IMG/VR virus record: IMGVR_UViG_3300045988_149625
Direction: 5' to 3' (one strand)
Source of the DNA: a virus
DNA: 64,000 nt
Part shown: piece after piece, positions 18,971-59,709 of the stretch
How positions within the stretch are numbered: position 1 is the stretch's first letter
How the letters are laid out: each line of letters starts with the position of its first letter
The notes under the pieces: generated by a model
The model's input: only the letters and a program-made list of their open reading frames with translations
The model's database searches: none
What the model was told of the DNA's origin: nothing
Translations under genes and position numbers: made by a program

Positions 18971-19046
18971 AACTAGGTATACGGCTACATGAAGTTGTTA
19001 AGGAACACGAAGTAGTCTTGAATATACTGGGTTGTGGTTGTTAAAA

Positions 19047-19161
19047 GAGCTAAACTAGGCGGTAACTGGGATAACAGCAGTTCTTGTAGTTCGCAGTCAG
19101 TGAATTGCAACAATTCCTCAGCTAATGTCAATGCTAATTATGGCGGTCGCGGCGCTTGCGA
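19047..19161 (+). repeat. DGR template repeat (TR), A-rich (AAC/AAT codons)
   Basis: gagctaaactaggcggtaactgggataacagcagttcttgtagttcgcagtcagtgaattgcaacaattcctcagctaatgtcaatgctaattatggcggtcgcggcgcttgcga. Identical to the VR except where the TR has A. Confidence 0.8.
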
Positions 19162-19416
19162 TACGGAGAGAGCTATTCCTTCGGCTGAACCACAATCCAT
19201 TCTAGCAGAGAAATACTGTATAGAAAAACACACAACAGGAGTATAGAAGGGCTAGTAGTGTAAACGAACGTCATTCTATAAAACTCCGTATCTTTAAATA
19301 AAGGAGAAATAAACTTGAAAAGAATTGGGAATTTATGAACTAAAATTATAGATAAAGAAAATATTAAGGAGAGTATTTTAAGCGCTGCAAAACATAAGAA
19401 AAAGCGCCCTGCGGTA

Positions 19417-20709
19417 ATGAAGGTACTCAATAATATAGACGAATATGTAGAAAAGATTCACAAATTGTTAGTAAACAAGGAGTATAAAGTTTCGGAATAT
19501 TATATAAAAGCAATTTATGAGCCTAAGCTAAGGCTTATTTACATATTACCCTTTTATCCAGATAATATAATATTTCACTGCATAATGAGGGTATTAGAGC
19601 CTATATGGGACAGTAGGTTTATTTATGATACTTATTCATGCAGGAAGGGTAAGGGGCAACATAAAGGAATGTTAAAGAGCACTATATACGTAAAGAATTA
19701 CAAATACTGCTTAAAATGTGATATAAGTCAGTTTTACCCAAGCCTTAATCATAGAATACTAAAGGAAAGTTTCCGTTGGAAAATCAAAGATAAGGACGTA
19801 TTGGAGCTACTTGACTTAATAGTAGATAGTGTTTCTGTGCGGGAAAGGAATCTAGATTTTTTAAAGTGCTGCAAGGCAAGTGATAAACATATGATGGAAC
19901 AGAAGCTTCAAACATTAAAAGAAGAGTTCCCAGAAGGAGATTTCGGTGTGCCTATTGGTAATTATCCTTCACAATGGTTCGGAAACCTTTATATGAACCC
20001 TTTAGATAACCTTATTAAGTACTGTTTCCATGCAAAAGCATATGTAAGATACTGCGACGATTTTGTTGTTTACAGTAATGATAAAAAGTGGTTACATAGT
20101 GTAGCTGCGGAGATAGAGAACTTTTGTAAGGAAAGATTAAAATTAAAGATGAGTAAGTGTCGGGTATTTCCTACGAAGTGTGGAGTAGATTTCTTAGGGT
20201 ATAAAGCATTTCCCAGTGGTAAGATTCTTTTGCGTAAAAGGACAGCAAAAAGAGTCCATAAACAAATAAAAGCATTATGGAAAGAGCTATCTTATGGGAA
20301 CTATGAACAAATGCTTTCTAAAGTGGGAAGCAGAATGGGGTATTTAAGGTACGCTAAAAGTTATAATTTTAGATTACAAATAAAGATTAAAGAGTTGGAA
20401 AGGGAACTAAAAAGGAGGATTAGTATGGTAGGTTATCCAAAAAATTTAAGCACAAAAGAAGATTATGAGTACGTGAGAACACATTTCCCTAAAAGTGATT
20501 GGCAGAAAGACTTTGAAAGTCTTTTACCTCGCAAGGAATGGTTCTTCATTGAAGAAACTAAGGTTAATAAAAAAGAAGATGCTACTCATAAAACAGAACC
20601 CTCTGACGATGAAGGGGTATTCTATCGTTATGAATTGAGGGGGGTAAGTAAGGCAGCAGAAATTGGATATACGGTAGAAGAAGTAGAGAAGATTCTAAGG
20701 AGTGAATAA
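19417..20709 (+). CDS. DGR reverse transcriptase
   Basis: YCDDFVV (YxDD) and IGNYPSQWFGNLYMNP (DGR-type SQ motif). N-terminal YEPKLRLI is typical of DGR RTs. The conserved sequence continues in frame upstream to 19339 and the RBS-linked TTG at 19315, but an in-frame TGA lies at 19336-19338. Confidence 0.85.
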   Translation: MKVLNNIDEYVEKIHKLLVNKEYKVSEYYIKAIYEPKLRLIYILPFYPDNIIFHCIMRVLEPIWDSRFIYDTYSCRKGKGQHKGMLKSTIYVKNYKYCLKCDISQFYPSLNHRILKESFRWKIKDKDVLELLDLIVDSVSVRERNLDFLKCCKASDKHMMEQKLQTLKEEFPEGDFGVPIGNYPSQWFGNLYMNPLDNLIKYCFHAKAYVRYCDDFVVYSNDKKWLHSVAAEIENFCKERLKLKMSKCRVFPTKCGVDFLGYKAFPSGKILLRKRTAKRVHKQIKALWKELSYGNYEQMLSKVGSRMGYLRYAKSYNFRLQIKIKELERELKRRISMVGYPKNLSTKEDYEYVRTHFPKSDWQKDFESLLPRKEWFFIEETKVNKKEDATHKTEPSDDEGVFYRYELRGVSKAAEIGYTVEEVEKILRSE

Positions 20710-33759: not shown

Positions 33760-34065
33760 ATGAGAGTAAACGGTGAAATATTTGCAAGGCATATCGCAAG
33801 GGTTAATAATGTTTCTATCAAAGAAGGTTGGCGTATCTATAAAGCTTTTATGACAGCTTTTTCAGAAACAGTGTCTGAGGGCTGCGACACTTTTGACTTT
33901 ATAAACTATTTTAGAATCGAGTTTAAAGCTTATAAGGCTAAGGGAATGGATTTAGTTCGCCAAGAAACTGTTGAAAGGCAGATTGTGCGTGGAAAGGTAA
34001 AGCCATATTCTAAATTACGTAAGCGCATTTTGGAGGCACAAAATGTATCACCAAAAGTATTTTAA
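33760..34065 (+). CDS. HU/IHF-like DNA-binding protein (putative)
   Basis: ~100 aa with a basic arm (...RQIVRGKVKPYSKLRKR...). Pattern similarity to HU only. Confidence 0.35.
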   Translation: MRVNGEIFARHIARVNNVSIKEGWRIYKAFMTAFSETVSEGCDTFDFINYFRIEFKAYKAKGMDLVRQETVERQIVRGKVKPYSKLRKRILEAQNVSPKVF

Positions 34066-35803
34066 ATTACATATTGTTCAAGAAGATACCTTAAATGACT
34101 TTTTAAATCTTTTTAAAAAAGCAAAGCAAGTCTTTTGGGACACTGAAACATCTGGGTTAAATGTACGTGCTGTAGGTAAAGATTATACAGTAGGCTTTAC
34201 GTATGCTTTTGATGATACTACATCTAAAGACGTTTTTTACGTTCCTGTAAGACATGTGTTCGAGGGAAAATATGAGGATAATGGCAGATTCTCTTTCTTG
34301 AAGAAATCACAGCTTGAAAAGTTTCCAGATTTTTGCCCAGAAAAATTTGAAGGAACTTATTATAATGTAGATTCTTTTAAGTTTGCAGCAGAGCTTAAAA
34401 CTATTATGGAGCGTGGCGGTAAAGAGTATATCGCACATAATCAAGATTATGATTTACATTTACTAGCTAATGAAGGAATTGATATTTATAAAGTCTTTGA
34501 CGTAAACACTTTTCAAGATACACAAATAATGGTGCATACACTAGATGAGAATGTAGAAAAGAATCTTGAAAGTGTTACTAAGATGATTTTTAAAGTTGAA
34601 AAGTCGCATTATAGTGATACCATTAAAACTGTTACTAAAGAAGAAAAGCTTTCACAGGGTTTAAAGGCTACTAATAATGCAAGCTTTCAGCATGTTCAAA
34701 TTCCAATAGGTGCACAGTATTCAGCAGAGGACGTTTGGTTTATGAAGCAAATGTATCCAATGCTTGAAAAAGGTTTAAAAGAAGATGATTCTTATGACAT
34801 ATATCTTAAATGCCGTATGCCTTTTATGAAAGCCCTTTGGAAAATGGAAAGAAAAGGTGTAAGTGTAGATATTGCTGCCCTGGATAAGATGCAGGAACTT
34901 GCGGAGAAAGAATTAGAAAACTCTAAATATAAAATGTTTTCTTTGGCAGGAGTGGAGTTCAATCCCGATAGTGGACAACATCTTTATGAAATCCTTTTTG
35001 GCTTTAAAAAGAAAGTTATGAGGCTTACTCCAAGCGCACAAAATGCTTTTGAAATGGAAAGTGCTGGATACACTACGACTGAAAAAACTAAGCTTAAAAA
35101 CTTGTATATGAATGAGCCGTCACATGTAATGTTCGTAGAATCTTGCAATAATAATTTAGTAGATGTAAACTTTGGCTTTAAACCAATAGAGTTTACAACA
35201 GGCGGTAAGTATGGCTATGAAGAGTTACAAACGCCGAAAACAGGTGGAGATATTTTAAAAGCATTGTTAAAGCAGAAAAATGTTGATGCAAAAGCGCATG
35301 ATTTTATTACAGAGCTTGTAACTTATAAAAAACTCTCTAAACTTATTAGTGCATTTATGATAGGGTTAAGAGAGAATATTTATAGTGATGGCAAAGTGCA
35401 TTGTAGCTTGAATTTAACAGGAACAGATTCGTGGCGAATTAGTAGTCAGATGCCGAATCTCCAGCAGCTACCGCACCCACTAGAAGAGCCGAAAGCGGGG
35501 GAAGATAGAACCTACTTTGATTTTTGGGAACGGTTTGAAATAAGAAAACTGTTTATAGCCGATGAAGGTTATAGTGTAATAGCTTGCGACTATCATGCTT
35601 TGGAGAAATACTTAACGGCGCATTTGTCACAAGATAAGATGCTTTTAAAGATGTTGAGGGAGAATTTAGACCCGCACGGTACAGTTGCAACTATCGTTTT
35701 TCCAGAACTTGCAAACATGAATCCAAATGACGTAAAGAAGCGTGAGCCTGCTAAAAGGCAAATTGCAAAAAAAATAGGCTTCGCTAAAGGTATGGTGAAG
35801 TAA
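34043..35803 (+). CDS. DNA polymerase I (family A), exon 1: 3'-5' exonuclease plus N-terminal polymerase domain through motif A and start of motif B
   Basis: Exo I VFWDTETSGL. Motif A CDYHALEKYLTAHLSQDKML (DYSQIELR-like). Start of motif B REPAKRQIAK... Frame closes at 35803 inside motif B. Confidence 0.75.
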   Translation: MYHQKYFKLHIVQEDTLNDFLNLFKKAKQVFWDTETSGLNVRAVGKDYTVGFTYAFDDTTSKDVFYVPVRHVFEGKYEDNGRFSFLKKSQLEKFPDFCPEKFEGTYYNVDSFKFAAELKTIMERGGKEYIAHNQDYDLHLLANEGIDIYKVFDVNTFQDTQIMVHTLDENVEKNLESVTKMIFKVEKSHYSDTIKTVTKEEKLSQGLKATNNASFQHVQIPIGAQYSAEDVWFMKQMYPMLEKGLKEDDSYDIYLKCRMPFMKALWKMERKGVSVDIAALDKMQELAEKELENSKYKMFSLAGVEFNPDSGQHLYEILFGFKKKVMRLTPSAQNAFEMESAGYTTTEKTKLKNLYMNEPSHVMFVESCNNNLVDVNFGFKPIEFTTGGKYGYEELQTPKTGGDILKALLKQKNVDAKAHDFITELVTYKKLSKLISAFMIGLRENIYSDGKVHCSLNLTGTDSWRISSQMPNLQQLPHPLEEPKAGEDRTYFDFWERFEIRKLFIADEGYSVIACDYHALEKYLTAHLSQDKMLLKMLRENLDPHGTVATIVFPELANMNPNDVKKREPAKRQIAKKIGFAKGMVK

Positions 35804-36199
35804 AATTCCTCTCATAACGGTGAAAGCCATTAAGATTGCCATAACTTAATGGTCAACGCCGTGCCGAACTTCTTTGTAAAAAGACGGTGTAACGACTTAT
35901 AATGTATCGCTATACTTTAAGTATAAATCTTACGAATACATTTAATGGGGAACATGAACTATGTAAGAAGTGCCATCAAAAAGAGCATCATGCAGTTACC
36001 TATTTACTTTGTGATTGCGATGGCAATGTATTACATACGTTGATTAGTAAAAAGAGTGTGTTAAAGTTTTTAAATAGCCTTGGTTACTTTCCTAAAGATA
36101 CAAGTGGTATTAGAGGGGTTATTAGAAATAAAACTAAAATATATGGTTTTTACTGGCAGCGAGTTCTAAAGGCATAGTCTGACACCAGTAGTAATACTG
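35804..36199 (+). mobile_element. group I intron (IA-like) interrupting DNA polymerase motif B; boundaries approximate
   Basis: R-like element gtgtaacgactt (35887-35898) and S-like element aaggcatagtctgaca (~36170-36185, AUAGUC) bracket an HNH-like ORF. The downstream exon frame encodes ILDNGLVDYGGTS (motif B NFGxxYG) upstream of any start codon, so an RNA-level join is needed. Confidence 0.5.
35902..36177 (+). CDS. intron-encoded HNH/AP2-like homing endonuclease (putative)
   Basis: 91 aa. CKKCHQKEHH...CDCDGN (Cys/His zinc-finger/HNH-like) and SGIRGV...KIYGFYW (AP2-like). Sits inside the pol intervening sequence. Confidence 0.4.
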   Translation: MYRYTLSINLTNTFNGEHELCKKCHQKEHHAVTYLLCDCDGNVLHTLISKKSVLKFLNSLGYFPKDTSGIRGVIRNKTKIYGFYWQRVLKA

Positions 36200-36724
36200 G
36201 ACAACGGACTGGTAGATTATGGCGGCACTTCTGTTGCGGTAAGTAAGAATTTGGATGTAGACCAAAAGACAGCACAGAAATACATTGACCGTTATTTTGA
36301 AGGTTTCTATGGTTTGCATACTTATGATAAAGCTGTAATACGTTTTGCACAGTCAAATGGGTTTGTAAAGACGCTTGGTGGACATAAAAGGCATTTATGG
36401 GATATTAACAGCAGTGATAAGAAAGTATCTTCTTACTTAGAGCGTGTTGCAGTAAATGTAATGAGCCAGGGTGCAGGTGGGGACGTAGCAATGTTTGCTA
36501 CATTAGATGTTGACCGCGACCCAGTGCTTAAAGCAATAGGTGCATACTTATTTTTAAATGTACACGATGAGTTAGGCTTAATGTGTCCAACTAAATACGT
36601 GGAGCTTGGAATGGAGCGTTTACAATATCATATGGAACATTGTTTACAGAACCGTGGAATTAATCTGACAATTCCTTTGGAGGCAGTCCCAGATTATGGG
36701 CATAGCTATTATGATGCAAAATAA
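36200..36724 (+). CDS. DNA polymerase I (family A), exon 2: rest of motif B through motif C
   Basis: ...DNGLVDYGGTSVAVSKNLDVDQKTAQKYIDRYF (compare E. coli [17 protein letters not shown]...EAQKYIDLYF). Motif C VHDELGL. The 5' boundary is a guess. Confidence 0.6.
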   Translation, partial: DNGLVDYGGTSVAVSKNLDVDQKTAQKYIDRYFEGFYGLHTYDKAVIRFAQSNGFVKTLGGHKRHLWDINSSDKKVSSYLERVAVNVMSQGAGGDVAMFATLDVDRDPVLKAIGAYLFLNVHDELGLMCPTKYVELGMERLQYHMEHCLQNRGINLTIPLEAVPDYGHSYYDAK

Positions 36725-41454: not shown

Positions 41455-41853
41455 ATGTACAATAATTTTTTTACTACTGTACGTGGTGGTTCAAGGTATG
41501 TAATTTTAATAGGAAATCTTGCTATTAAATTCCCATACCTACGTTTTCCATATCACGGACGTAAGCAAAACTTGAAGGAGTGGGAATACAGGAATAAAAG
41601 CAAGTATTTAGCTAAATTATATATTTCATTCCCTTTTGGTTGGTGCAATGTAATGGAGAGGGTGCAGCCCTTAGCTAAGTCTTTAAGCAGTGTGGATTGC
41701 ACCAATTTGATAAGAGCTTATTTTAAGAATAAAGTTACAGGTGATGAGCTTGCTTTTTTATTGGAGGATAGCACCTTGGAAAACTTTGGTACTAAAAACG
41801 GTAGGATAGTTAAGCTTGACTGGGGAGGTTTTGGGCGAAGTGAAAGTATGTGA
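41455..41853 (+). CDS. hypothetical protein
   Basis: 132 aa. RBS ggaggagtcagATG. Confidence 0.3.
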   Translation: MYNNFFTTVRGGSRYVILIGNLAIKFPYLRFPYHGRKQNLKEWEYRNKSKYLAKLYISFPFGWCNVMERVQPLAKSLSSVDCTNLIRAYFKNKVTGDELAFLLEDSTLENFGTKNGRIVKLDWGGFGRSESM

Positions 41854-42400
41854 AATTTATTCGGCTTTACAGGGGGAGGGCAGGTATACAGGATATGCAA
41901 CGACTTTTATACAAGAGCCTATTGATTTAGCCAAAGGCACAGATTGGTCAATAGATAGGATTCTCTCAAAAGTAAATAAATTAGGGAACAGGCATGTTTG
42001 TATAAAAGGTGAAACGCTTTTGCAGGAAGATAGTTATACACTTGTATATGAGTTGTTAGCCTACTCATATATTGTAACTATGGAAACGTCTTGTAGAATC
42101 CCTTTAGAAGATTGTTTATATGACAGAACTTATGCTTACAATGTAATTATAAACTGTGCTAATGAAAATATCTTAAATAATTTAAGATTATTGCACAGTA
42201 ATGATGAAGTTAAATTCGTAATAAAAGATGATTCTGATTTTGATTATGTAAAGAAAGCTTTAAAGAAATACCCAACGTCTGCTATGGTTACACTTTATCC
42301 TTTTAAAAATGATTTAAATATCTTTAAAAAAATAGAAGATTTCTTAATGAAAAACCGTTTAAATGCAAGAGCAGGTTTAAAGTTACATAAATTGATTTAG
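41816..42400 (+). CDS. QueE-like (7-carboxy-7-deazaguanine synthase family) protein lacking the radical-SAM cysteine triad
   Basis: N-terminal EIYSALQGEGRYTGYATTFIQ (QueE EIFxSIQGEG...FIR) and RHVCIKGETLLQ (QueE HVVxTGGEPLLQ). No CxxxCxxC between them. TTG start. Confidence 0.4.
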   Translation: MTGEVLGEVKVCEIYSALQGEGRYTGYATTFIQEPIDLAKGTDWSIDRILSKVNKLGNRHVCIKGETLLQEDSYTLVYELLAYSYIVTMETSCRIPLEDCLYDRTYAYNVIINCANENILNNLRLLHSNDEVKFVIKDDSDFDYVKKALKKYPTSAMVTLYPFKNDLNIFKKIEDFLMKNRLNARAGLKLHKLI

Positions 42401-42407
42401 AAAAGTG

Positions 42408-42436
42408 TTGACAATACCTTTAAGGTGTGCTATAAT
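42408..42436 (+). promoter_or_regulatory. sigma-70-like promoter
   Basis: ttgaca at 42408-42413 and tgctataat ending at 42436. Confidence 0.45.
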
Positions 42437-42457
42437 ATACACATAAGGAGGTAGGTT

Positions 42458-42856
42458 ATGGAATACACTAAAGAAAACGTAGTAAAAATTGTAGAAGATT
42501 TTAAAGACCTAATTTTAGCCATTGAAATGGAACGCAGAATCCGTTATGATGCTGTACATGAGAATGATTGCGCTTTAGGGGATATTCGACATTTTTGTGA
42601 GCTGGAATATCCTACGGAGCGCAGTATGCGCACTAAAATTTGTCAATTAATGCGTGATATCAGCAAGAAAAGGCGTGAGGACAAAGACTTCTTAGATGTC
42701 ACACAGCCTTTGGCAGAATTTCTTTCTGGCTCACCTAATTTAAAGGTAAATTTAGGCAAAACAACTAATAACATGAAAAAAGCGTTGGTTAAAACACAGG
42801 GGGAACGTGTTTACGTTCCCAGAGTGCTTAATGATTTATTTAAAAAGGAGATTTAA
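42458..42856 (+). CDS. hypothetical protein
   Basis: 132 aa. RBS aaggaggtaggttATG. Confidence 0.3.
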   Translation: MEYTKENVVKIVEDFKDLILAIEMERRIRYDAVHENDCALGDIRHFCELEYPTERSMRTKICQLMRDISKKRREDKDFLDVTQPLAEFLSGSPNLKVNLGKTTNNMKKALVKTQGERVYVPRVLNDLFKKEI

Positions 42857-42980
42857 AAATGCAAAAAAGATTACACACTAAAAATTGGAACACTAAACCT
42901 AAAAATAGAGAATTACCCGCTATTTTTCAAGCTTTTAATCTAAGACAGTTTCAGAAAGCATTTATCGGAGGTTCTAAAAA

Positions 42981-43328
42981 TTGTTAATTACCAATATTAA
43001 AATTTATGGACTAGAAGAATCCATTTATGCAAGTGGGTATCCAATGCTTTCAAAACCACCTACTAAAGAAGAGTTTGAGAGTGGGGTATCTGATGTAACA
43101 ACGAATATTTTTATGCGTGAAACTGTAGGAGCAAAAGCAGCAGGTGCACATATTAAAAGGGCTTTAAAGCTTGGCAGTGCAGCCGCAGGAACTGGGCACA
43201 ATAACTTTTTAAAGGGAATTATTGTGCAAATGGATGTTAATGCACCGCAGTATTGGTGGCAACAGGCACAGCGTTATCACTGGTTCGATTTCGTTAGCTC
43301 GAAGGGCGTTTTAGTAGGTAACTATTAA
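42981..43328 (+). CDS. ThyX-like (flavin-dependent thymidylate synthase fold) protein, exon 1; divergent (RHR motif replaced)
   Basis: ...GHNNFLKGIIVQMDVNAPQYWWQQAQRYHWFDFVSS... versus ThyX ...[35 protein letters not shown].... Frame closes just before an intron-like structured region. Confidence 0.35.
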   Translation: MLITNIKIYGLEESIYASGYPMLSKPPTKEEFESGVSDVTTNIFMRETVGAKAAGAHIKRALKLGSAAAGTGHNNFLKGIIVQMDVNAPQYWWQQAQRYHWFDFVSSKGVLVGNY

Positions 43329-43329
43329 A

Positions 43330-43685
43330 ATTATGAATTGGTGAACCTAGAAATCTAGGGTGTGCGACTTATGTCGTGCTAACGGTAAGAGTTAAATAAG
43401 ACTGGGAATATGACAATTATTCTCTTTAGCCATAGGCGAATACGCTCTCTAAGAGAAGCTAAGGACTTTCGTAAGTTAGCTTGCTAATACCGTGCTAAGT
43501 TTTTCTATTCTCATGTAATTTGAGAATAGATTAAAAAGTGTAACGACTAACCGAAGTATTAACATACTTCAAGAGGTTTAAGGTGAAATTCCTTATTCCG
43601 TAGCGCCAATTACCCTATAAGGGTAAAGAGATAGTCTAATCCCACTATTAAATTAGTGTTAAAGTACGCCGAAAGGCGGGGTAGA
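43330..43685 (+). mobile_element. ORF-less group I intron (IA-like); boundaries approximate
   Basis: R element gtgtaacgactaacc (P7 5'). P7.1 hairpin gaagtat-taac-atacttc. P8 hairpin taccct-ata-agggta. J8/7 plus P7 3' aagagatagtct (S element). P9-like cgcc-gaaa-ggcg (GNRA loop). About 330 bp without an ORF between two halves of one reading frame. Confidence 0.5.
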
Positions 43686-44000
43686 AATGCAATGAGTAAG
43701 GTACATTGCCTTACAAAAATGGATATTGACAGTATGTGTGACAGCACTGTAACGGAAACAGCGAAGCTCAATTTAGTTGGGGCAATTCAAGATTACACTG
43801 AGGGCAAGATTGACTTTGACACTATGATGTGTAATGTTCCTATGGGATTGCATTTAACTGCAAGAATGACAACAAATTATTTGCAGCTTAAAACGATGTA
43901 TGCACAAAGACAGCATCACAAATCTAAAGAGTGGCAGGAGTTCTGTAAGTGGGTAACATATTTACCTATGAGCTATTTAATTACAGGAGGTACTATGTAA
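43686..44000 (+). CDS. ThyX-like protein, exon 2 (putative)
   Basis: Frame open from 43635. Continues NAMSKVHCLTKMD...; exons 1 and 2 together give about 218 aa, a small-ThyX length. Confidence 0.3.
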   Translation, partial: NAMSKVHCLTKMDIDSMCDSTVTETAKLNLVGAIQDYTEGKIDFDTMMCNVPMGLHLTARMTTNYLQLKTMYAQRQHHKSKEWQEFCKWVTYLPMSYLITGGTM

Positions 44001-44317
44001 TGAGTAATTCTAAGGAGTTTATACAATTTCAAAAGGATTACATCTTGTTTCCTTGGGGAGAGCAAGAAGTTATTGGGTATTTTAAATGCCCCGTTTGTGG
44101 TAAGCCAATTTATGTTTTAGAGTTTTTTGGCGGTGAGGAAGAGCACTATTACTATCTTTATCATTTTAATTCTTGGGATGATAAGAAATTATGTCCTATT
44201 GCGCAGGATGACTGTTCCACACCTTTCACTATCCTAGGTGGTATTACCTACGATAATTTTGAAGAAATTGTAGATACATGGGCGTATGGTATCCGTACAG
44301 TGGAGTGTACAGAATGA
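44000..44317 (+). CDS. Cys-rich small protein (zinc-finger-like)
   Basis: RBS aggagg then an ATG at 44000 overlapping the upstream stop (TAATG). CPVCGKP...C. Confidence 0.35.
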   Translation: MSNSKEFIQFQKDYILFPWGEQEVIGYFKCPVCGKPIYVLEFFGGEEEHYYYLYHFNSWDDKKLCPIAQDDCSTPFTILGGITYDNFEEIVDTWAYGIRTVECTE

Positions 44318-44727
44318 TTTATGCAATAGATTTTGATGGTACGCTAGTTAAAAATCAATATCCCTATATAGGGGAAGAGCAAAAGATTTCTACACACATG
44401 CTTGACAAGACAAAAATTGAGAAGTTTATTCCTGCCACAGACTTTTGCAAGGAATTGCAACGTGAGGGACATAAACTTATTTTGTGGACTTGCAGAGAGG
44501 GTGAGCTTTTACAAGAGGCATTACGCTGGTGCCTTTATAGAGGGTTAATCTTTGATGCAGTAAATGATGATTTGCCACAAGTAAAGCAATGTTTTCCAGA
44601 TGAACTTAAATCGTGGGAAGGTTCAGAACGTGCAAGAAAAATCCATGCAGATGTGTATATTGATGATAAAGCAGTTGTACCGATTTGTGAGGATAAAGAT
44701 AAAAATGTACGTTATCGCGAGTTTTGA
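44314..44727 (+). CDS. HAD-superfamily phosphatase/hydrolase
   Basis: MIYAIDFDGTLVK is the HAD motif I (DxDGT). RBS ggagtg. Confidence 0.5.
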   Translation: MIYAIDFDGTLVKNQYPYIGEEQKISTHMLDKTKIEKFIPATDFCKELQREGHKLILWTCREGELLQEALRWCLYRGLIFDAVNDDLPQVKQCFPDELKSWEGSERARKIHADVYIDDKAVVPICEDKDKNVRYREF

Positions 44728-45016
44728 AAATTTTAAAGGAACAAGTTATCATGTGCTAGATGTTTTATCTTTTCATTTTAATGGTTCTAAAGGAACTTGC
44801 GTTATCGTGGGGGGTATTCCCCCCATTTTAGAACCATTTTTAAAGGATTGGGCAGATAAGAATGATATACATTTAGTACAGTGTACTAAAGACGATTTTA
44901 AAGACTTAGATATGCTTTTTGGAGATATTTCAGTCATTATCTTTGGCATGAACACATTTCTTCTAAAGAAAAGTTTAGAATTAAGTCTTAGATATTATAT
45001 TATAAAAGAGGAATAA
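44705..45016 (+). CDS. hypothetical protein
   Basis: 103 aa from the ATG at 44705. Confidence 0.3.
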   Translation: MYVIASFENFKGTSYHVLDVLSFHFNGSKGTCVIVGGIPPILEPFLKDWADKNDIHLVQCTKDDFKDLDMLFGDISVIIFGMNTFLLKKSLELSLRYYIIKEE

Positions 45017-45017
45017 A

Positions 45018-45614
45018 ATGACTAATATTATATGTATGAGTGGCGGTTATGACAGTACCGTACTTTATGATTATCTGAAAAAAGATGAACATTTAGATTT
45101 AAAGGTTTACCATGCGCTTTATACTAAAGTTGAAGGTGGCACATATAATTTAAATGAGTTTAAACGTCTTTCACAAAAGTTTAATAATGAAATAGATTAT
45201 TTAGCGCACTTTAACTTACATTTATTAGGTGAGGATTACATTCCGAACAGAAACACTCTATTTGTAATGGATATCATTGCAAAGCTTTATGTTGGAGAGC
45301 CTTTAAATATTTACCTGGGAATTATTAAGAATTTTCCTAGATACCCAGACTGTACACATGAATGGTTGGAGGCTCTTAATTCATTTTTAAGCATTGAATT
45401 TCCAAATGTTAAAGTTTTAGCACCCTTTATAGACCTTACAAAAGACGATGTTTTCAAGATTGGATGCAAGCTTGGCGTAAAATTAGAGGATACTTTTTCA
45501 TGTAACTTTTCTGATAATGGTGAGCCTTGCGGTGTTTGTGAGAATTGTAAATGGCGCGCAGCGCATATGTACCCTAGTTATTTTTTGAAGGAGGGGAATG
45601 AAATTGGCAAATAA
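45018..45614 (+). CDS. queC: QueC-like 7-cyano-7-deazaguanine synthase
   Basis: PP-loop ICMSGGYDST and a C-terminal Zn-binding Cys cluster (CNFSDNGEPCGVCENCKW). Confidence 0.6.
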   Translation: MTNIICMSGGYDSTVLYDYLKKDEHLDLKVYHALYTKVEGGTYNLNEFKRLSQKFNNEIDYLAHFNLHLLGEDYIPNRNTLFVMDIIAKLYVGEPLNIYLGIIKNFPRYPDCTHEWLEALNSFLSIEFPNVKVLAPFIDLTKDDVFKIGCKLGVKLEDTFSCNFSDNGEPCGVCENCKWRAAHMYPSYFLKEGNEIGK

Positions 45615-45822
45615 ATCTAATTCGGAGAAGAAAAATTCTGTTCCGCAGATTAAAATTGCAGCAAGAAGTGTTGAAAAGACTAAAGGTGGATTTTTAAGTA
45701 TTAAGCAGGGAAGAACAGGCGACACAAATAACTTACAGACTAATCCATATTATAGATTTATGAATAGAACTTCTTGGAAAACTAAGAATAAAAAAGGCAT
45801 TACACCTTGGGGGCGTATTTAA
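45598..45822 (+). CDS. hypothetical small basic protein
   Basis: 74-aa ORF. Confidence 0.25.
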   Translation: MKLANKSNSEKKNSVPQIKIAARSVEKTKGGFLSIKQGRTGDTNNLQTNPYYRFMNRTSWKTKNKKGITPWGRI

Positions 45823-47717
45823 AAATGAAAGGTGATTTTACGCTTTTATTATCTGGTGTTGAGCCTAAGGAAAACTGGGAAGTAGCATCTTCTGTAACAA
45901 AGAATGTGCTACTTTCCTATAAGTATATTCGTAAACGTGGATTAGATGAAATTGTAAAGCGTTTAAAGTCCCATAGGGGAATGAAAGTTTTAATTGATAG
46001 TGGTGCTTATACATTCTTTAATGATAAAGAGTTTAATAATAAGACTATTGAATGGTGGGAAGATTATTTAGTAAAGTATATTAACTTTATACGTGAGTAC
46101 CGTGACTATATCTTTGCCTGCGTGGAACTAGATATTGATAGTATTGTTGGCGAGGATATTGTAGAAGGTTGGCGTGAAAAGTATTTCTACCCATTAGAAA
46201 GAGAAGGAATAAATGTTATTTATCTTTATCATTTAGATAAAGATTTATCGCATTTTGAAAAGCTTTGTAAGCAGCATCCTTATGTTGGATTTTCGTACAT
46301 GGAGATAAAGCATACTATTGAGGATATGGGGGAAAGAGAAAATCTCATTTCACAACTATTCCAAATAGCTAAAAGGTATAAATCTGCTATTCATGGTTTT
46401 GCAATTACAGGTAATAAGCTACTATTGAGTTATCCATTCTTTTCCGCAGATTCTACTACGTATTTAACAGGTGCGCAATTTGGTACAATTACCTACTTTG
46501 AAGCAGGTCAAATGAAGCATCTTGAAAAAACACAGTGGAAAACAGAATATATGGAAAAACTAAAGGCGTTGGGGTTAAAGGAGAAATTGCTTGAAATAGA
46601 ATCTCCTTATGAGCTTATAAGAGCAAATGCCATTAGCTATAAGAAATTTGAAGAATACGTTAAAAATGTTATGCGGCCACAAAAATATTGGGAAGCACGT
46701 TCAAACACTAAATACTCTATTCCAGATGCATCATGGTTTGAAGGGGATATGCAAGATTGGCAGGAACGCTTAGAACTAGCAGGAATTGATACAAACATTC
46801 CTCAAACAGCGGGTGAAACAATTTTACATGATGCTTATATTTTTCTAAATGAGCCTAAAGAAGCCAAGAATTATGAACTTGACGACCTTGTGGGTTTATG
46901 TGCAATGTTTGGTGCAACAGGTGCAAACTATAATACAAAAGATAAGTGTATAAAGTTTTTGCAGGAAGCTTTCAAAGAACATGTTGACGGTATGCGAAAC
47001 GAGTTGTCAAATTTGCAGAATCCAGAAGAGGGGCAGCGTATAGCACTTGAACGTGAGGACTATATTACAGAGAAAGAGTATTTAGAGGTTGAAATGAGTA
47101 GGGAAGAATGTGGAGAACTTCTACCTGCATTATTAACTTCTGGATATGATAAAGATGATGTTGAAAAATCTTTAATAGAACAAGGTATTAAACCAATCTA
47201 TGATAAAAATGGTAATATCTTAAAAGGTATCAAAAAGGTTAAGCGACAGAAAAAGCTTTCCACAAGGGCTTTGCCTAGACTTTCTTGTGATAGATGCGTA
47301 ATGGCAGCAAACTGTACAGAGTACCAAGCAGGATATATTTGTGCATACGATAAAATGTTCCGCAGATTTAACACCAGGGAACAAGAAGATGTTATACAGG
47401 GAATGACAGCTATTGCTGATTTAGCAATAGAACGTGCTCAAAAAGCCTTTATGCTTGAAACAGCTATGGGTGGGACACCTACAAAGGCTACTTCACAGGC
47501 AATGCAGGATGCTTTTGGATATTTAACTAAGTTAAAAGAATTGCAAGATGAAGTAAAAGGACGACCAGTTATGGTTTCACAAACAAAAATCAAGGGCGGC
47601 AGTATCGAACAAACTGTTGTTCATGGTGCTAATCCTCAATCTGGCGGCATTTTAGAGCGAATTTTTATGGAAGATACAGACGATGAAAAAACAGTAGAAG
47701 CGGAGGTAGTTAAATGA
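45807..47717 (+). CDS. DpdA/TGT-like (tRNA-guanine transglycosylase superfamily) protein, putative DNA 7-deazaguanine transglycosylase
   Basis: VLIDSGAYTF resembles TGT LTDSGGFQ. C-terminal Cys cluster (SCDRC...NC...C). Lies next to the QueC and QueE-like genes. 636 aa. Confidence 0.4.
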   Translation: MGAYLKMKGDFTLLLSGVEPKENWEVASSVTKNVLLSYKYIRKRGLDEIVKRLKSHRGMKVLIDSGAYTFFNDKEFNNKTIEWWEDYLVKYINFIREYRDYIFACVELDIDSIVGEDIVEGWREKYFYPLEREGINVIYLYHLDKDLSHFEKLCKQHPYVGFSYMEIKHTIEDMGERENLISQLFQIAKRYKSAIHGFAITGNKLLLSYPFFSADSTTYLTGAQFGTITYFEAGQMKHLEKTQWKTEYMEKLKALGLKEKLLEIESPYELIRANAISYKKFEEYVKNVMRPQKYWEARSNTKYSIPDASWFEGDMQDWQERLELAGIDTNIPQTAGETILHDAYIFLNEPKEAKNYELDDLVGLCAMFGATGANYNTKDKCIKFLQEAFKEHVDGMRNELSNLQNPEEGQRIALEREDYITEKEYLEVEMSREECGELLPALLTSGYDKDDVEKSLIEQGIKPIYDKNGNILKGIKKVKRQKKLSTRALPRLSCDRCVMAANCTEYQAGYICAYDKMFRRFNTREQEDVIQGMTAIADLAIERAQKAFMLETAMGGTPTKATSQAMQDAFGYLTKLKELQDEVKGRPVMVSQTKIKGGSIEQTVVHGANPQSGGILERIFMEDTDDEKTVEAEVVK

Positions 47718-49873
47718 GAAAATTAGCAAGTGTAGAAATTATAGATAAATTAGAGCCTATCCCAAATGCTGATAGAATTTTAAAAGCAACTGTAAAAGGT
47801 TGGGAATGTGTTGTAAGTAAGAGTGACAACTTTCAGCAAGGCGATAAAGTAGTGTATATTGAAGTAGATTCTGTTCTCCCTGCAAGACCAGAATTTGCCT
47901 TCCTTAAAGACAGAAAGTACCGCATTAAGACTATTAAGTTGCGTAAACAGATTTCACAAGGTTTGATTCTGCCTTTAAGTTACTTGCCAAACAAAGAATA
48001 CGCTGTTGGGGAAGATGTAACTAAAATATTGAATATTAAGAAATTTGACCCGCAGCTTGAAGCAGAGAATAAAATCATGGCAGTTGCTGCCCCAAAAGGA
48101 AGATTCACATTCTTATGGAAGCCTTTAATGCGTTTCCGTTGGTTTAGACGCTTATATGCAAAATTCCATGTACAGAATGAAAAGTTCCCTACTTACATTG
48201 CAAGCAAGACTGATGAAGAACGCTGGCAGAATATTACTGACAAGCTTGAACAATGGAGAGATACAAATGTCCCCCTGATTTGTACAGAGAAGGTCGACGG
48301 CTGCCATTCATACAGAAGTAGTGTAATTACAAATAAGGGGTTCTTGCCAATAGGTAAAATTGTAAATGAAAAACTTGATGTGGAAGTTCTTACTTATAAT
48401 GAAGAATCCAAATGTTGTGAGTTTAAACCTATTATAGATTATCATAAAATCTTATGTACAAAGCCTACATACCGCATTGGTGTAGGAAGTCGTGGTAAGG
48501 GAAATAAGCCTAAATATATTGAGTGTACCTCTAACCATGAATTTTTAACACAAGACGGCTGGAAGCAAGCGGATGAGCTTACTTTAGATGATACTCTAAT
48601 GCACTATTTTTCTGTTATTAACTATGATATTCAAAGTATTATCTTAGGCTGCTTACTAGGGGATAGCAGCATTAATGGCAATAGAAAAGGTACATCTTAC
48701 TTAACTGTACTGTTTGGGCACTCTGAAAAACAAGTAGAATATTTTAATTATAAGAAGCAGCTTTTTGGAAATCTTTTTATTGAACAAAAGGATACTTTAA
48801 GTGGATATGGCAGTGTAATTAAACATGGTATTTTACGTTCCAATGAGGGTGTTCGTAGACTTATTGAGGAGTATTGTTTGGTAGATGATAAATTTGCGGT
48901 AACACAAAAATATTGCGATGCTTTAACACCTATGTCATTGGCATTTTGGTATATGGACGACGGAAGCCTTTTAACAGGTACTTTACGACCAAAAGCAATT
49001 TTAAATACGCAAGCATATGATTTAAATACTATCAAAATGCTTGTAGAAACCTTACGTAACCGCTTTGGTTTAGAGGCATTTATTGGAGATAAAGAAGTTT
49101 ATAAAGGATACGTTATTTATTTCTCTGTGGAATCTACCCTTAAATTTGCACAATTAATTGCCCCCTATGTATGCGAAAGTATGAGATATAAATTACCAGA
49201 ACAGTATAGAAGTTATGGATGTGCTTTAAATAGTGTAAATACAGAAGTGCAAGATATTTTACCCACAAAAATTCTCTCCATTGAAGAGTTTGAAGCAGGT
49301 CATTTTGGCAAGCATATGTATGATTTAACTATTCAAGATAATCATAATTATTTTGTACATAGTATTTTAACTCATAATTGTTCCTCAACCTTCTTTTTAG
49401 ACGGCGGCACTTTTGGGGTTTGCAGTAGAAATATTTGGCTACGTAAGGAAGATAATTCGCCCTATTGGGAAATTGCAAGACGCTTTCAGATTGAGGAAGC
49501 TTTAAAGGAGATTCAAAAGTGCTTTGGTTTTAGAAAAATTGTTTTACAAGGTGAGATTATTGGGCAAAATATCCAAGCTAATAAATATAAGATTAGCGGG
49601 TATGATTTTTATGCCTATAATTTAATCCTTGACGGCATTAAAGTTTCACAAGTAAAAATGGAAGAGCTTCTTAAAGAATTTCGCATTAAAACAGTGCCTG
49701 TAGTTTATAAGCATATCAATGTGCCAAGTGACTTACAGACCTTAAACAATCTTGCGAGTGGTAAAAGTGTATTACTTGATACACAAGAGCGTGAAGGTAT
49801 CGTTTGCAGAAATTATGAGCAGGGGATTTCTTTTAAAGCGATTTCCCCAACTTTCTTGCTAAAAGAAGAATAA
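47714..49873 (+). CDS. RNA ligase (N-terminal tRNA-binding-like OB domain plus nucleotidyltransferase domain, Rnl5/DraRnl-like) interrupted by an intein
   Basis: N-terminus SVEII...PNADRIL...VGDKVVYIEVDSVLP is tRNA-binding-domain-like. Motif I TEKVDG is followed immediately by the intein Cys. C-extein has EGIVCRN (motif IV). Confidence 0.6.
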   Translation: MRKLASVEIIDKLEPIPNADRILKATVKGWECVVSKSDNFQQGDKVVYIEVDSVLPARPEFAFLKDRKYRIKTIKLRKQISQGLILPLSYLPNKEYAVGEDVTKILNIKKFDPQLEAENKIMAVAAPKGRFTFLWKPLMRFRWFRRLYAKFHVQNEKFPTYIASKTDEERWQNITDKLEQWRDTNVPLICTEKVDGCHSYRSSVITNKGFLPIGKIVNEKLDVEVLTYNEESKCCEFKPIIDYHKILCTKPTYRIGVGSRGKGNKPKYIECTSNHEFLTQDGWKQADELTLDDTLMHYFSVINYDIQSIILGCLLGDSSINGNRKGTSYLTVLFGHSEKQVEYFNYKKQLFGNLFIEQKDTLSGYGSVIKHGILRSNEGVRRLIEEYCLVDDKFAVTQKYCDALTPMSLAFWYMDDGSLLTGTLRPKAILNTQAYDLNTIKMLVETLRNRFGLEAFIGDKEVYKGYVIYFSVESTLKFAQLIAPYVCESMRYKLPEQYRSYGCALNSVNTEVQDILPTKILSIEEFEAGHFGKHMYDLTIQDNHNYFVHSILTHNCSSTFFLDGGTFGVCSRNIWLRKEDNSPYWEIARRFQIEEALKEIQKCFGFRKIVLQGEIIGQNIQANKYKISGYDFYAYNLILDGIKVSQVKMEELLKEFRIKTVPVVYKHINVPSDLQTLNNLASGKSVLLDTQEREGIVCRNYEQGISFKAISPTFLLKEE
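48302..49378 (+). mobile_element. intein (359 aa) with LAGLIDADG homing-endonuclease domain, inserted after ligase motif I (KVDG|C...HN|C)
   Basis: Starts at Cys197 right after KVDG and ends ...SILTHN before the +1 Cys. LAGLIDADG-type blocks ILGCLLGDSSI and LAFWYMDDGSL. In-frame, length is a multiple of 3. Confidence 0.7.
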
Positions 49874-49878
49874 AGTAG

Positions 49879-49907
49879 TTGACAAGCCTTTTTGATTGTG
49901 TTATAAT
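49879..49907 (+). promoter_or_regulatory. sigma-70-like promoter
   Basis: ttgaca at 49879-49884 and tgtgttataat ending at 49907. Confidence 0.45.
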
Positions 49908-49942: not shown

Positions 49943-50296
49943 TTGAAAATGAAAATCTCGGTAACTGAAATTAAACGTAAAAAAGAGTTTCCTAAATACA
50001 TACTTACAGAGTCAAGTGATAAATTGGTAGTAAATACTGGCAATTTAAAATTCCTAGCAAGCTGTATTTATGCGTCAAATCATTATCCTGTCCGCATTGT
50101 TATTGATGAGGGGGGTGAGGATTTTACCTATGGTTTTGTAGTCTATATTTCAAAGGAATTTCTTATATGTATTGATACAAGTTCTGAGAATGAAAATTTT
50201 CAATCAATCTTTAAAATTCCTGTTGACAGCTTTTCAAAGCTGTGTTATAATGGATGTAGATTCAAGATATACATTAAAGAATCATTATGTAAATAA
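49943..50296 (+). CDS. hypothetical protein
   Basis: 117 aa. RBS aggtggttgaaaATG. Confidence 0.35.
   Translation: MKMKISVTEIKRKKEFPKYILTESSDKLVVNTGNLKFLASCIYASNHYPVRIVIDEGGEDFTYGFVVYISKEFLICIDTSSENENFQSIFKIPVDSFSKLCYNGCRFKIYIKESLCK
50223..50251 (+). promoter_or_regulatory. sigma-70-like promoter embedded in 3' end of preceding ORF
   Basis: ttgaca at 50223-50228 and tgtgttataat ending at 50251. Confidence 0.35.
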
Positions 50297-53449: not shown

Positions 53450-53635
53450 ATGATTACTGTAAAAGTAACAACTACTAAACAACTATATTCCTTAATTAAC
53501 TGTTTATTCGAGCTACATAGGAATGAGCTTGAAACGGAGGAAAAGAAGCAGCTAACGGCTGTGACACTACTCCCATACAATCAATCTATCTATATGCCTG
53601 TAGAGCTTTATTTGAAGATAAGGGGGATATTATGA
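53450..53635 (+). CDS. hypothetical small protein
   Basis: RBS aaaggggcaataacATG. Confidence 0.35.
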   Translation: MITVKVTTTKQLYSLINCLFELHRNELETEEKKQLTAVTLLPYNQSIYMPVELYLKIRGIL

Positions 53636-54117
53636 TTTATCTTGTAGCCGACACACACTTCAACCATGATATGATGATTGAGAGTGGTTTGCGCCCAAAA
53701 GAGTATGAACGAAAGCTTATTAGAAATTGGAATAAGCAGGTAAAAGATGAAGATATTGTCATTCTCTTAGGGGATATTTCTTGGCGAAATGATTATAGTG
53801 TTCTTGAAAAATTGCATGGAAGAAAGATTCTTGTAAGAGGTAATCATGATAAACATTCCTGCGAGGCTTTTATGAAAGTCTTTGACTTTGCGTGTGATTC
53901 GTTTACAATGGACTACAAGGGAATTAATATCATTTTTACGCATAAACCATTAAAGCGTTTTTCACAAGATGTAAATATTCATGGACATTTACATGATAAA
54001 CCTGCTTTAAGAGATAAAAGACACATTCTTATTTCCCTGGAAAAAATGGGATACTGTGTGTTCCCTTTAAAGGGAATTATTAAGAAGTGGAAAAAGCTTA
54101 ATATGGAGGGATGCTAA
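53632..54117 (+). CDS. calcineurin-like metallophosphoesterase
   Basis: DTHFNH, GDISW, GNHD and GHLH metal-binding motifs. Confidence 0.55.
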   Translation: MIYLVADTHFNHDMMIESGLRPKEYERKLIRNWNKQVKDEDIVILLGDISWRNDYSVLEKLHGRKILVRGNHDKHSCEAFMKVFDFACDSFTMDYKGINIIFTHKPLKRFSQDVNIHGHLHDKPALRDKRHILISLEKMGYCVFPLKGIIKKWKKLNMEGC

Positions 54118-54846
54118 TTGATTTATATTACAGGTGATATTCACCAAAATTTTGATACTTGGAAGTTTGACGGAATTGATTTTAAATCAGAAGATTTCCT
54201 AATTATATGCGGAGATTTTGGTTGGGTATGGGCACATTCTTCTTTAAAGAAGCAAGTCTTAGATGAGAAGAAAAGACTACGTGCTTTTGTTCAAAAGCTG
54301 AAATGTACAGTGCTTTTCTGTGACGGAAACCACGAAAACTTTGCAAGATTGAATGATTATAAAGAATTTCCAGTTACAAAGCGTTGGGGTGGTAAGGTAC
54401 AAAAACTATGTAATAAATGTTATCATTTAGTACGTGGTGAAAGCTTCCTCATTGACGGCAAAAAATTCCTTGCTTTAGGTGGAGCGGAGTCACATGATAA
54501 ATTTCTTAGAACGCCAAATTTATCATGGTGGGAACAAGAAACGATTGAGGATGCAGAAGTTGAAAACGCTATAAAAAATTCTGACAATGTAGATTGTGTT
54601 ATAACACATTGTTGTCCTACATCTATTCTTACAGATTTATATGCAGCAAGGTGTATTGACAGTGTGCAGCCTACACTTTCCACGGAACAATTAGAAAAGT
54701 TGTATAAACATTTATGTACTAAAAATCATAAATTTAAATGGTTCTTTGGACATTATCATTTTGATAGGAATTTTACAAAGGGAGCAGGAGATTTCTATTT
54801 ACTGTATGATGCAATTTATTGTTTAGATACAGACAGCCATTTTTAA
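54118..54846 (+). CDS. calcineurin-like metallophosphoesterase (second, paralogous-type)
   Basis: GDIHQN, CGDFGW, DGNHENF and GHYHFD motifs. TTG start after ggaggg. Confidence 0.5.
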   Translation: MIYITGDIHQNFDTWKFDGIDFKSEDFLIICGDFGWVWAHSSLKKQVLDEKKRLRAFVQKLKCTVLFCDGNHENFARLNDYKEFPVTKRWGGKVQKLCNKCYHLVRGESFLIDGKKFLALGGAESHDKFLRTPNLSWWEQETIEDAEVENAIKNSDNVDCVITHCCPTSILTDLYAARCIDSVQPTLSTEQLEKLYKHLCTKNHKFKWFFGHYHFDRNFTKGAGDFYLLYDAIYCLDTDSHF

Positions 54847-59274: not shown

Positions 59275-59709
59275 ATGTGGTTTGAAGTAATTGTGAAAGA
59301 TGCTGAAAAGGAAATTAAGCTTTCCTTGCCGTGTGATGAGCAGGAATTAAAAGACAGCTATACTATTGTAAGCTGTGAAAATAGCTGGGATTATGAGAAT
59401 GCGGATTTGACTTTGAAAGAGCTGAATAATCTTGCGCAAGATTTGCAAGATATTGAGGATAACGGCGATGAAGATTGGCTTGAAGCTTATATTGAAGCTA
59501 CTGGCTGTGATTTAAATATTGCCGTTGATAAATATGATACATCGACTTTTTATCATGATATGAGCTTGGTAGACGTTGCATATGATATTGTAGAAGAGTG
59601 TTACAACCTGCCAGAGAACTTAGAGCGTTATTTTGATTATGAAGCTTTTGCAAGAGATTTGGAGATTGAAGGTTATACAGAAACATACTATGGAACTATT
59701 TTAGTTTAA
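59275..59709 (+). CDS. hypothetical highly acidic protein (possible DNA-mimic/anti-defence candidate)
   Basis: 144 aa, D/E-rich throughout. RBS aaggaggctgtattATG. Confidence 0.4.
   Translation: MWFEVIVKDAEKEIKLSLPCDEQELKDSYTIVSCENSWDYENADLTLKELNNLAQDLQDIEDNGDEDWLEAYIEATGCDLNIAVDKYDTSTFYHDMSLVDVAYDIVEECYNLPENLERYFDYEAFARDLEIEGYTETYYGTILV

Follow-up and report, generated by a model that had tools for sequence, protein, structure and literature searches.

What is a 359-amino-acid (aa) insertion doing directly behind the catalytic lysine motif of a phage RNA ligase? The question is raised by a single gene in IMG/VR virus record IMGVR_UViG_3300045988_149625, of which we analysed a stretch of 64,000 nucleotides (nt), referred to here as the window. 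A first-pass annotation made from the bare sequence had described a 719-aa open reading frame (ORF) at 47714–49873, and the ORF list contains this frame at exactly these coordinates. Domain matches, structure models and natural alleles together indicate that the insertion is very probably a canonical class 1 intein carrying an I-SceI-type LAGLIDADG endonuclease within an Rnl5-type phage RNA ligase. The predicted parts of the gene are as follows.

47714–49873 (+), intein-containing Rnl5-type RNA ligase precursor gene, 719 aa, stop codon included; ORF list and Pfam, NCBIfam and PHROG matches
47714–48301 (+), N-extein, aa 1–196: OB domain (aa 4–88), linker and start of the nucleotidyltransferase domain including TDEER (R170); PF21189 and NgrRnl alignment
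48290–48301 (+), motif I KVDG, aa 193–196, with K193 the predicted adenylylation nucleophile; the intein starts at the next codon
48302–49378 (+), intein, class 1, 359 aa (aa 197–555); PF14890 and TIGR01445/TIGR01443, with boundaries given by the segment missing from a natural empty allele
48302–48598 (+), N-terminal Hint half, aa 197–295; Foldseek matches to DnaB, DnaE, NrdJ-1 and RecA mini-inteins, kept in mini-intein allele P0004 (contig L001)
48599–49228 (+), I-SceI-type LAGLIDADG homing-endonuclease domain, aa 296–505; PF03161 E=3.4e-28, I-SceI (1r7m) E=1.3e-15, the block deleted in L001
48641–48673 (+), LAGLIDADG motif 1 ILGCLLGDSSI, aa 310–320, catalytic Asp317; G316 and D317 invariant
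48938–48970 (+), LAGLIDADG motif 2 LAFWYMDDGSL, aa 409–419, catalytic Asp415/416; A410, W412, D415, D416 and G417 invariant
49229–49378 (+), C-terminal Hint part with blocks F and G, ending His554-Asn555; TIGR01443 match at aa 536–556
49379–49873 (+), C-extein, aa 556–719, with +1 nucleophile Cys556 and no C-terminal domain after it; PF09414 at aa 556–709

Signature of a class 1 intein with an I-SceI-like endonuclease

The ATG start codon and the stop codon of the preceding gene share the sequence ATGA, and a GGAGG ribosome-binding site lies 8 nt upstream of the start. Pfam resolves the precursor into a PHA02142 OB fold (PF21189, aa 4–88, E=1.7e-28), an Intein_splicing domain (PF14890, aa 214–555, E=3.4e-12), a LAGLIDADG_2 domain (PF03161, aa 308–478, E=1.2e-27) and an RNA_ligase domain (PF09414, aa 556–709, E=8.6e-18). 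NCBIfam returns the intein N- and C-terminal regions (TIGR01445 and TIGR01443) together with RNA_lig_DRB0094, and PHROG returns RNA ligase phrog_968 together with a LAGLIDADG homing endonuclease. As profile matches these lie far beyond chance, and an AlphaFold model of the precursor with a predicted local distance difference test (pLDDT) score of 82.5 contains three recognisable folds resembling NgrRnl, I-SceI and mini-inteins.

The insertion sits between Gly196 of KVDG and Cys556, opens with Cys197 and closes with ILTHN. The first-pass annotation had placed it at 48302–49378, from a Cys after KVDG to THN before a Cys, and these boundaries proved exact to the base. Intein blocks A, B, F and G, proposed there as a check, are all present, with block B reading TSNH (aa 272–275), block F DLTIQDNHNYF (aa 537–547) and block G ILTHN (aa 551–555). 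The key residues C197, T272, H275, D537, H554 and N555 are invariant across 46 site-matched homologues of 32–81% identity, and the +1 residue is Cys, Ser or Thr in 81/81 homologues with an insertion at the window's site (site A below). PF14890 also matches the excised insert by itself (E=8e-13, covering insert aa 17–359). In Foldseek comparisons of the precursor model, the Hint halves superpose on DnaB, DnaE, NrdJ-1 and RecA mini-inteins, including Ssp/Npu DnaB, DnaE and Mtu RecA, with a root-mean-square deviation (rmsd) of ~2 Å. The element combines a Hint fold, Cys1, a TxxH motif and HN followed by Cys+1 in an insert that is removable in frame, the features of a class 1 intein. Two other candidates, a non-splicing Hint or bacterial intein-like (BIL) domain and a free-standing endonuclease gene lying between two gene halves, were each ruled out by the single open frame, the HN plus Cys+1 junction and the empty allele.

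Both LAGLIDADG blocks named in the first reading of the sequence, ILGCLLGDSSI and LAFWYMDDGSL, were recovered at aa 310–320 and 409–419. The endonuclease domain resembles I-SceI (PF03161; PDB 1r7m; E=1.3e-15) with a TMt of 0.76 and an rmsd of 2.5 Å by Foldseek on the precursor model, and its two LAGLIDADG helices with acidic residues are arranged in a single-chain pseudo-dimeric fold. I-SceI is free-standing and encoded by a mitochondrial group I intron, whereas the window endonuclease is nested in the Hint domain and its predicted target is a phage ligase gene.

The host protein as a predicted Rnl5-type RNA ligase

Removal of the intein in silico yields a 360-aa protein in which PF09414 runs continuously over the junction (aa 187–350, E=3.8e-22) and phrog_968 covers aa 1–360 (E=1.4e-65). 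The first-pass expectation that excision of 48302–49378 would leave a continuous ligase is borne out by this domain match, by alignment with NgrRnl (E=3e-43) and by a natural 360-aa allele. Intein-free phage ligases align with the spliced protein through the junction as single tblastn pieces (338 records), among them those of Microcystis phage Mic1 and PAK_P1-like Pseudomonas phages. Compared with the sequence of the NgrRnl crystal structure, the spliced protein has ~30% identity and places KVDG-CSST opposite KLDG-SSMT, and the N-extein aligns with NgrRnl residues 4–128 and 138 onward.

ATP- and metal-ligand residues of NgrRnl were taken from PMC7261155 and mapped through the spliced-protein alignment. 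Window residues R2, D52, K110, R170, K193, D195, E614, E694 and K708 correspond to NgrRnl R4, D53, K121, R149, K170, D172, E227, E312 and K326, and all of the mapped active-site residues are invariant or nearly so among homologues. Neither K193 nor G196 varies among 46 intein-containing and 43 intein-free homologues, and across the 46 the residues E614, E694 and K708 are invariant as well. The C-extein carries CSRN, motif III QGE (E614), motif IV EGIV (E694) and motif V FKAI (K708). Structure prediction agrees with these assignments: the empty allele (protein cluster P0121) gives an AlphaFold model with a pLDDT of 90.4 that matches NgrRnl structures with template-modelling (TM) scores of 0.78–0.85, and the precursor model matches NgrRnl with a TMt of ~0.8.

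The spliced extein has an N-terminal OB domain and a nucleotidyltransferase domain that extends to the C terminus with no appendage, the Rnl5 architecture shared with NgrRnl and DraRnl (PDB 5cot and the 6vt series). The eight studied active-site residues of NgrRnl and its Lys170 are all conserved in the window ligase. PF21189, PF09414, the NgrRnl alignment and the model TM scores uphold the earlier description of a DraRnl-like ligase whose OB domain is N-terminal, with none at the C terminus; judged by sequence and modelled fold, the host protein is an Rnl5-family ATP-dependent nick-sealing RNA ligase. NgrRnl and DraRnl are without an intein, unlike the window ligase, and the +1 position is Ser in NgrRnl (KLDG-SS), Gln in most intein-free phage homologues and Cys in the window. 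Rnl5 enzymes seal duplex nicks with an RNA 3′-OH strand, in a Mn-dependent reaction on 3′-OH/5′-PO4 ends, and the physiological role of the family is described as uncharted (PMC5397189, PMC7261155).

Natural alleles and probable mobility of the intein

The protein clusters named here are metagenomic proteins grouped at 90% identity. The empty allele P0121 (360 aa, 234 members) is 98.9% identical to the in-silico spliced product, and its DNA (L002) shares 97% identity with the window on either side and lacks precisely nt 48302–49378. A pair of large genomes from the same metagenome repeats this pattern: a 99-kb IMG/VR genome (L008) has the intein, and a 102-kb genome (L009) is without it, with flanks 94–96% identical, and is collinear with the window except for nt 48302–49378. 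The intein boundaries are exact because natural empty alleles are without exactly this segment. The target site reads as follows, with a slash at the junction.

Predicted empty target site: GAGAAGGTCGACGGC/TGTTCGAGTACC
Empty site from L002: GAGAAGGTCGACGGC/TGTTCGAGTACCTTC

A third allele has lost only the endonuclease. Mini-intein allele P0004 encodes a 509-aa protein on contig L001, which is 95–98% identical to window positions 37323–60842, and differs by an exact in-frame deletion of 630 nt equivalent to window 48599–49228, with a boundary that can be placed only to within 3 nt (TAA). Flanked by the imperfect repeats GATGATACTCTAA and GATGTGCTTTAA, this deletion takes out the LAGLIDADG domain in its entirety and leaves the two Hint halves in place as a natural mini-intein of 149 aa. 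A second mini-intein, P0008, has boundaries that differ from those of P0004 and is independent of it. Empty, full-length and endonuclease-deleted alleles occur in genomes that are 94–98% identical, with cluster sizes of 234, 89 and 8 respectively.

Intein and extein histories are discordant. The window intein is 96.1% identical at the amino acid level to that of P0002, where the N- and C-exteins are only 70% and 61% identical, and 94.7% identical to that of P0003, where the exteins are only 64% and 59% identical; each of these two lineages has its own intein-free allele at ~97% identity (P0133 and P0130, respectively). At the DNA level the intein is 94% identical to that of contig L005, with 46 synonymous and 14 non-synonymous codon differences. 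The presence of the same 95–96% identical intein in exteins only 59–70% identical shows transfer between diverged ligase genes and points indirectly to recent homing. Junctions add a further trace, since empty P0133 reads KIDG-QSG where intein-bearing P0002 reads KIDG-[intein]-CSS, and empty P0123 reads DG-MSI where intein-bearing P0008 reads [intein]-CSV. This comparison of alleles shows the splicing nucleophile Cys+1 moving along with the intein. Of 116 relatives that lack the intein, 78 have Gln at +1, 19 Cys, 12 Thr, 5 Ser, and 1 each Met and Phe. In the window's own lineage, differences cluster near the junction only where the two Ser codons that come next are recoded synonymously, from TCG AGT to TCC TCA. 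Exteins of intein-positive and intein-free alleles differ by 35 synonymous and 4 non-synonymous codons, so the ligase is under purifying selection with and without the intein. Allele polymorphism, intein–extein discordance and the co-converted Cys+1 together point to an element that is, or lately was, mobile.

These features are consistent with the following cycle, that of a typical selfish element. The gene would be translated as a 719-aa precursor in which adenylylation is impossible, because motif I (KVDG) is split from the rest of the nucleotidyltransferase fold. The Hint domain would then excise itself, beginning with an N–S acyl shift at Gly196-Cys197 and continuing through trans-thioesterification to Cys556, cyclisation of Asn555 and an S–N shift. 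The products would be the 360-aa ligase in its active form (...TEKVDG-CSSTFF...) and the 359-aa intein, now free. The endonuclease of the free intein would cut intein-less ligase alleles of co-infecting related phages, and repair by recombination would then introduce the intein, along with the adjoining +1 Cys codon, at the cleaved site.

Five points weigh against the intein reading or temper it. Protein splicing and DNA cleavage by the window intein are activities that we infer; the window copy of the endonuclease could be inactive despite its intact catalytic residues; and the closest empty alleles already have Cys at +1, so the change in the window lineage may have been either invasion or precise loss. 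The spliced extein scores 145.5 bits against TIGR02306 (RNA_lig_DRB0094), just under the cut-off of 151.15. Finally, an exact look-up of the window precursor protein in public assemblies returned no record.

Intein insertion sites across the ligase family

Searching with the full-length protein yielded 383 proteins, and nearly all of the best 120 clusters combine OB, RNA_ligase, Intein and LAGLIDADG_2 domains in 700–790 aa. More than 100 metagenomic clusters carry inteins in this ligase family. Among the best 120 clusters, insertions follow three patterns.

Site A (the window's site), KxDG/C, after the motif I Gly: 77 of the best 120 clusters
Site B, TDExR/C...HN/C(E or Q)N, after the γ-phosphate-binding Arg: 27 of the best 120 clusters
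Site C, EK/C...HN/CDG, directly after the catalytic Lys: 10 of the best 120 clusters

In the numbering of PMC7261155, sites B, C and A follow the equivalents of NgrRnl Arg149, which contacts the ATP γ-phosphate, Lys170, the adenylylation nucleophile, and Gly173, and the three sites fall within ~30 residues around the adenylylation pocket. Sites B and A are both occupied by a full-length LAGLIDADG intein in at least four ligases of ~1110–1120 aa (P0005, P0007, P0015, P0018 and P0055), and P0106 (1131 aa) has a site-A intein and a second intein at a site further downstream. The window intein is 25–98% identical to site-A, 38–44% to site-C and 29–35% to site-B inteins, and by these identities the inteins of all three sites appear to belong to one related lineage.

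Precedents in cultured phages

The first-pass annotation had called an RNA ligase an unusual host gene for a phage intein. This holds for the literature, and does not hold for metagenomes, with their more than 100 clusters, or for GenBank record OM654377 and the Cluster J ligases described below. RNA ligase (IPR021122) is one of the new intein-bearing proteins in a 2025 preprint surveying actinophages (10.1101/2025.01.02.630785), and related inteins also occur in T5-like DNA polymerases and UvsX recombinases.

The closest intein among cultured phages is that of Pseudaeromonas phage vB_PpeM_KLEP7 gp164 (OM654377), already annotated as an ‘intein-containing RNA ligase’, which is 31.8% identical to the window intein over 100% of its length. 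KLEP7 gp164 shares with the window a Hint domain, an I-SceI-like LAGLIDADG endonuclease (WYMDDGSL) and a PF09414 ligase host. Unlike the window ligase, its host protein is Rnl2-like, with motif I KIHGTN near the N terminus and no N-terminal OB domain, and the insertion lies elsewhere, after GEWAG, with the junction ...AG/C...HN/S. Cluster J mycobacteriophages (KashFlow gp155, MW314846; Bobby, Beem, Dallas and Phoebus) encode a PF09414 ligase with a Hint plus LAGLIDADG_2 intein that is homologous to the window's, with 27–28% identity over 82% of the window intein. KashFlow gp155 and the window ligase share one insertion site, which immediately follows the motif I Gly (KLHG/C...VHN/S in gp155), and the +1 residue is Ser in gp155 compared to Cys in the window. 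These ligases come from high-GC (guanine–cytosine) actinophages, have very diverged exteins with no PF21189 OB match above threshold, and are labelled in GenBank only as ‘RNA ligase’ or ‘HNH endonuclease’.

Genome context and the question of RNA repair

The window derives from an uncultured phage whose siphovirus-like genome measures roughly 100 kb. A megablast of the ligase gene against 50,697 phage records gave no match, a scan of GTDB genomes with the intein-free ligase for a prophage or host gave no relative, and the nearest isolate is Bacillus phage BCD7, with ~30–33% amino acid identity for the DpdA-like protein and PolA. A SpoVS gene in related contigs hints at Firmicutes. The following neighbours bear on the role of the ligase.

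41816–42400 (+), QueE-like radical SAM gene
45018–45614 (+), QueC
45807–47717 (+), DpdA/TGT-like gene, 636 aa, translationally coupled to the ligase; phrog_887 queuine tRNA-ribosyltransferase, E=9.8e-67
53632–54117 and 54118–54846 (+), two adjacent metallophosphoesterase genes; Pfam Metallophos and Metallophos_2

The QueE-like, QueC and DpdA-like genes form a module for 7-deazaguanine (queuosine-precursor) synthesis at 41816–47717 and suggest modified phage DNA. A DpdA-like gene followed by the ligase is also found in relatives L001 and L005; in L001, gene calling divides the DpdA-like gene between ORFs of 251 and 388 aa. Around the ligase lie two helicases (one DnaB-like), a primase, PolA, a RecA/UvsX-like recombinase and PD-(D/E)XK nucleases.

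One alternative concerns what the ligase is for. The first-pass annotation had read the ligase and two calcineurin-like phosphoesterases as suggesting an RNA-repair countermeasure against host anticodon nucleases. Both phosphoesterases are real: ORF 53632–54117 matches Pfam Metallophos (E=2.7e-8) and phrog_547 (E=1e-32), and ORF 54118–54846 matches phrog_1649 (E=5.7e-32). Their association with ligases recurs, with the order ligase then Metallophos kept in the relatives L001, L005 and L006 and, in unrelated phages, a metallophosphoesterase (gp165) directly upstream of the intein-containing ligase gp164 in KLEP7 and another (gp151) near ligase gp155 in mycobacteriophage KashFlow; L005 additionally has NUDIX and Thg1-like genes downstream, and for the ligase of Cluster J mycobacteriophages joint action with Pnk in RNA repair has been proposed (PMC3706429). 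The repair claim itself nevertheless found little support in the window. The tRNA-repair arrangement typified by T4 Pnkp and Rnl1 is not matched here: the 64-kb window contains zero tRNA genes, no polynucleotide kinase was found among the ~50 ORFs scanned, a set that covered part of the small ORFs, and the ligase belongs to the nick-sealing Rnl5 type, whereas tRNA repair uses the Rnl1 type. A distance of 3.7 kb with ~12 small ORFs separates the ligase from the phosphoesterases, and the ligase is coupled to the DpdA-like gene within a module of DNA replication, recombination and 7-deazaguanine modification. We regard a role in reversing anticodon-nuclease damage to tRNA as unlikely, and as no more plausible than one in sealing ribonucleotide-containing nicks when DNA is replicated or repaired.

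Regulation and decay as alternative readings

A second alternative, compatible with the intein reading, is that the intein has been co-opted as a conditional-splicing switch that gates the ligase during infection, possibly through a redox-sensitive disulfide trap between Cys1 and Cys+1. In favour of a switch, the insertion adjoins the catalytic lysine, the family has three separate insertion sites grouped at the adenylylation pocket, Cys occurs at both position 1 and +1, and mini-inteins persist after loss of the homing endonuclease (P0004 and P0008). However, selfish inteins generally insert in conserved active-site motifs, so regulation is not required as an explanation, and intein-free alleles are at least as abundant as intein-bearing ones (234 compared to 89 full and 8 mini), which argues that the host is not dependent on the intein. 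We consider such a switch very unlikely. The Rnl5 adenylylation pocket may be a so far undescribed intein hot-spot; literature searches on inteins in Rnl5 ligases turned up only the actinophage survey preprint and genome notes, with no paper on the Rnl5 hot-spot itself. The broader proposal that the inteins of this pocket act as conditional switches, for example redox- or substrate-gated, to time ligase activation in infection appears highly improbable.

That the insertion is a dead, non-splicing relic and the ligase gene effectively a pseudogene is scarcely credible, because although the endonuclease-deleted allele shows that the element decays in this population, every splicing residue is in place and none varies across 46 homologues, the frame is open across 719 codons, the exteins retain the excess of synonymous over non-synonymous differences (35 to 4) of a ligase still under purifying selection, and the natural endonuclease deletion is exactly in frame with both Hint halves kept, as expected if splicing is needed.

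Other elements in the window and its relatives

Two further genes in the window are interrupted. At 43303–43691 (+) lies an insertion of 389–390 nt without an ORF that is absent at exactly this point from L001 and L009. A local scan aligned it with the whole of the RF00028 group I intron model (41.5 bits, compared to a gathering score of 50; E=3.4e-9). The affected gene, which is unbroken in L001 (210 aa, phrog_6721, unknown function), is divided here between ORFs 42981–43328 and 43656–44000, and the insertion is probably a polymorphic self-splicing intron. The second interrupted gene encodes a family-A DNA polymerase and is divided between 34043–35803 and 36251–36724 within its conserved K..NFG..YG region, and the gap at 35803–36251 (+) contains a weak RF00028 match (36031–36201, 20.9 bits, E=0.006) and a 91-aa ORF (35902–36177); this gap is probably a second group I intron. 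An Rfam scan of the whole window at the gathering threshold gave no matches, and the probable group I introns emerged only in permissive local scans.

A diversity-generating retroelement spans 17036–20709 (+). It comprises a variable repeat at the 3′ end of a tail-protein gene (18830–18952), a template repeat at 19046–19168 that is 79% identical to the variable repeat, with mismatches at template-repeat adenines, and a reverse-transcriptase gene at 19417–20709 (phrog_1423, E=3.6e-91). Just downstream of the ligase, at 49879–49907 and 50223–50251 (+), are two perfect σ70 consensus promoters, both with TTGACA, a 17-nt spacer, TATAAT and an extended TG. In L005 (SRR28154193), genes for a free-standing LAGLIDADG_3/4 endonuclease, a NUDIX protein and a Thg1-like protein, the last from a tRNA 5′-end repair family, lie downstream of the intein-containing ligase (16097–16657 and 18125–19410); the window ORF list has no ORF of comparable size (~253 aa) in the corresponding region. 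An ArdA-like anti-restriction gene lies at 59275–59709 (+) (phrog_2059, E=4.6e-14), and its L001 orthologue matches Pfam ArdA.

Implications

For annotation, the gene is best described as a predicted intein-containing Rnl5-type RNA ligase with a mature product of 360 aa. The findings leave the current understanding of inteins and RNA ligases unchanged, and the 149-aa mini-intein and the I-SceI-like endonuclease, with its defined predicted target, could be candidate tools for protein and genome engineering. The Rnl5 active site emerges as a frequent intein target, which fits the known preference of inteins for nucleotide-binding motifs, and the empty, full-length and endonuclease-deleted alleles offer a compact natural snapshot of what appears to be a homing cycle in an uncultured phage population.

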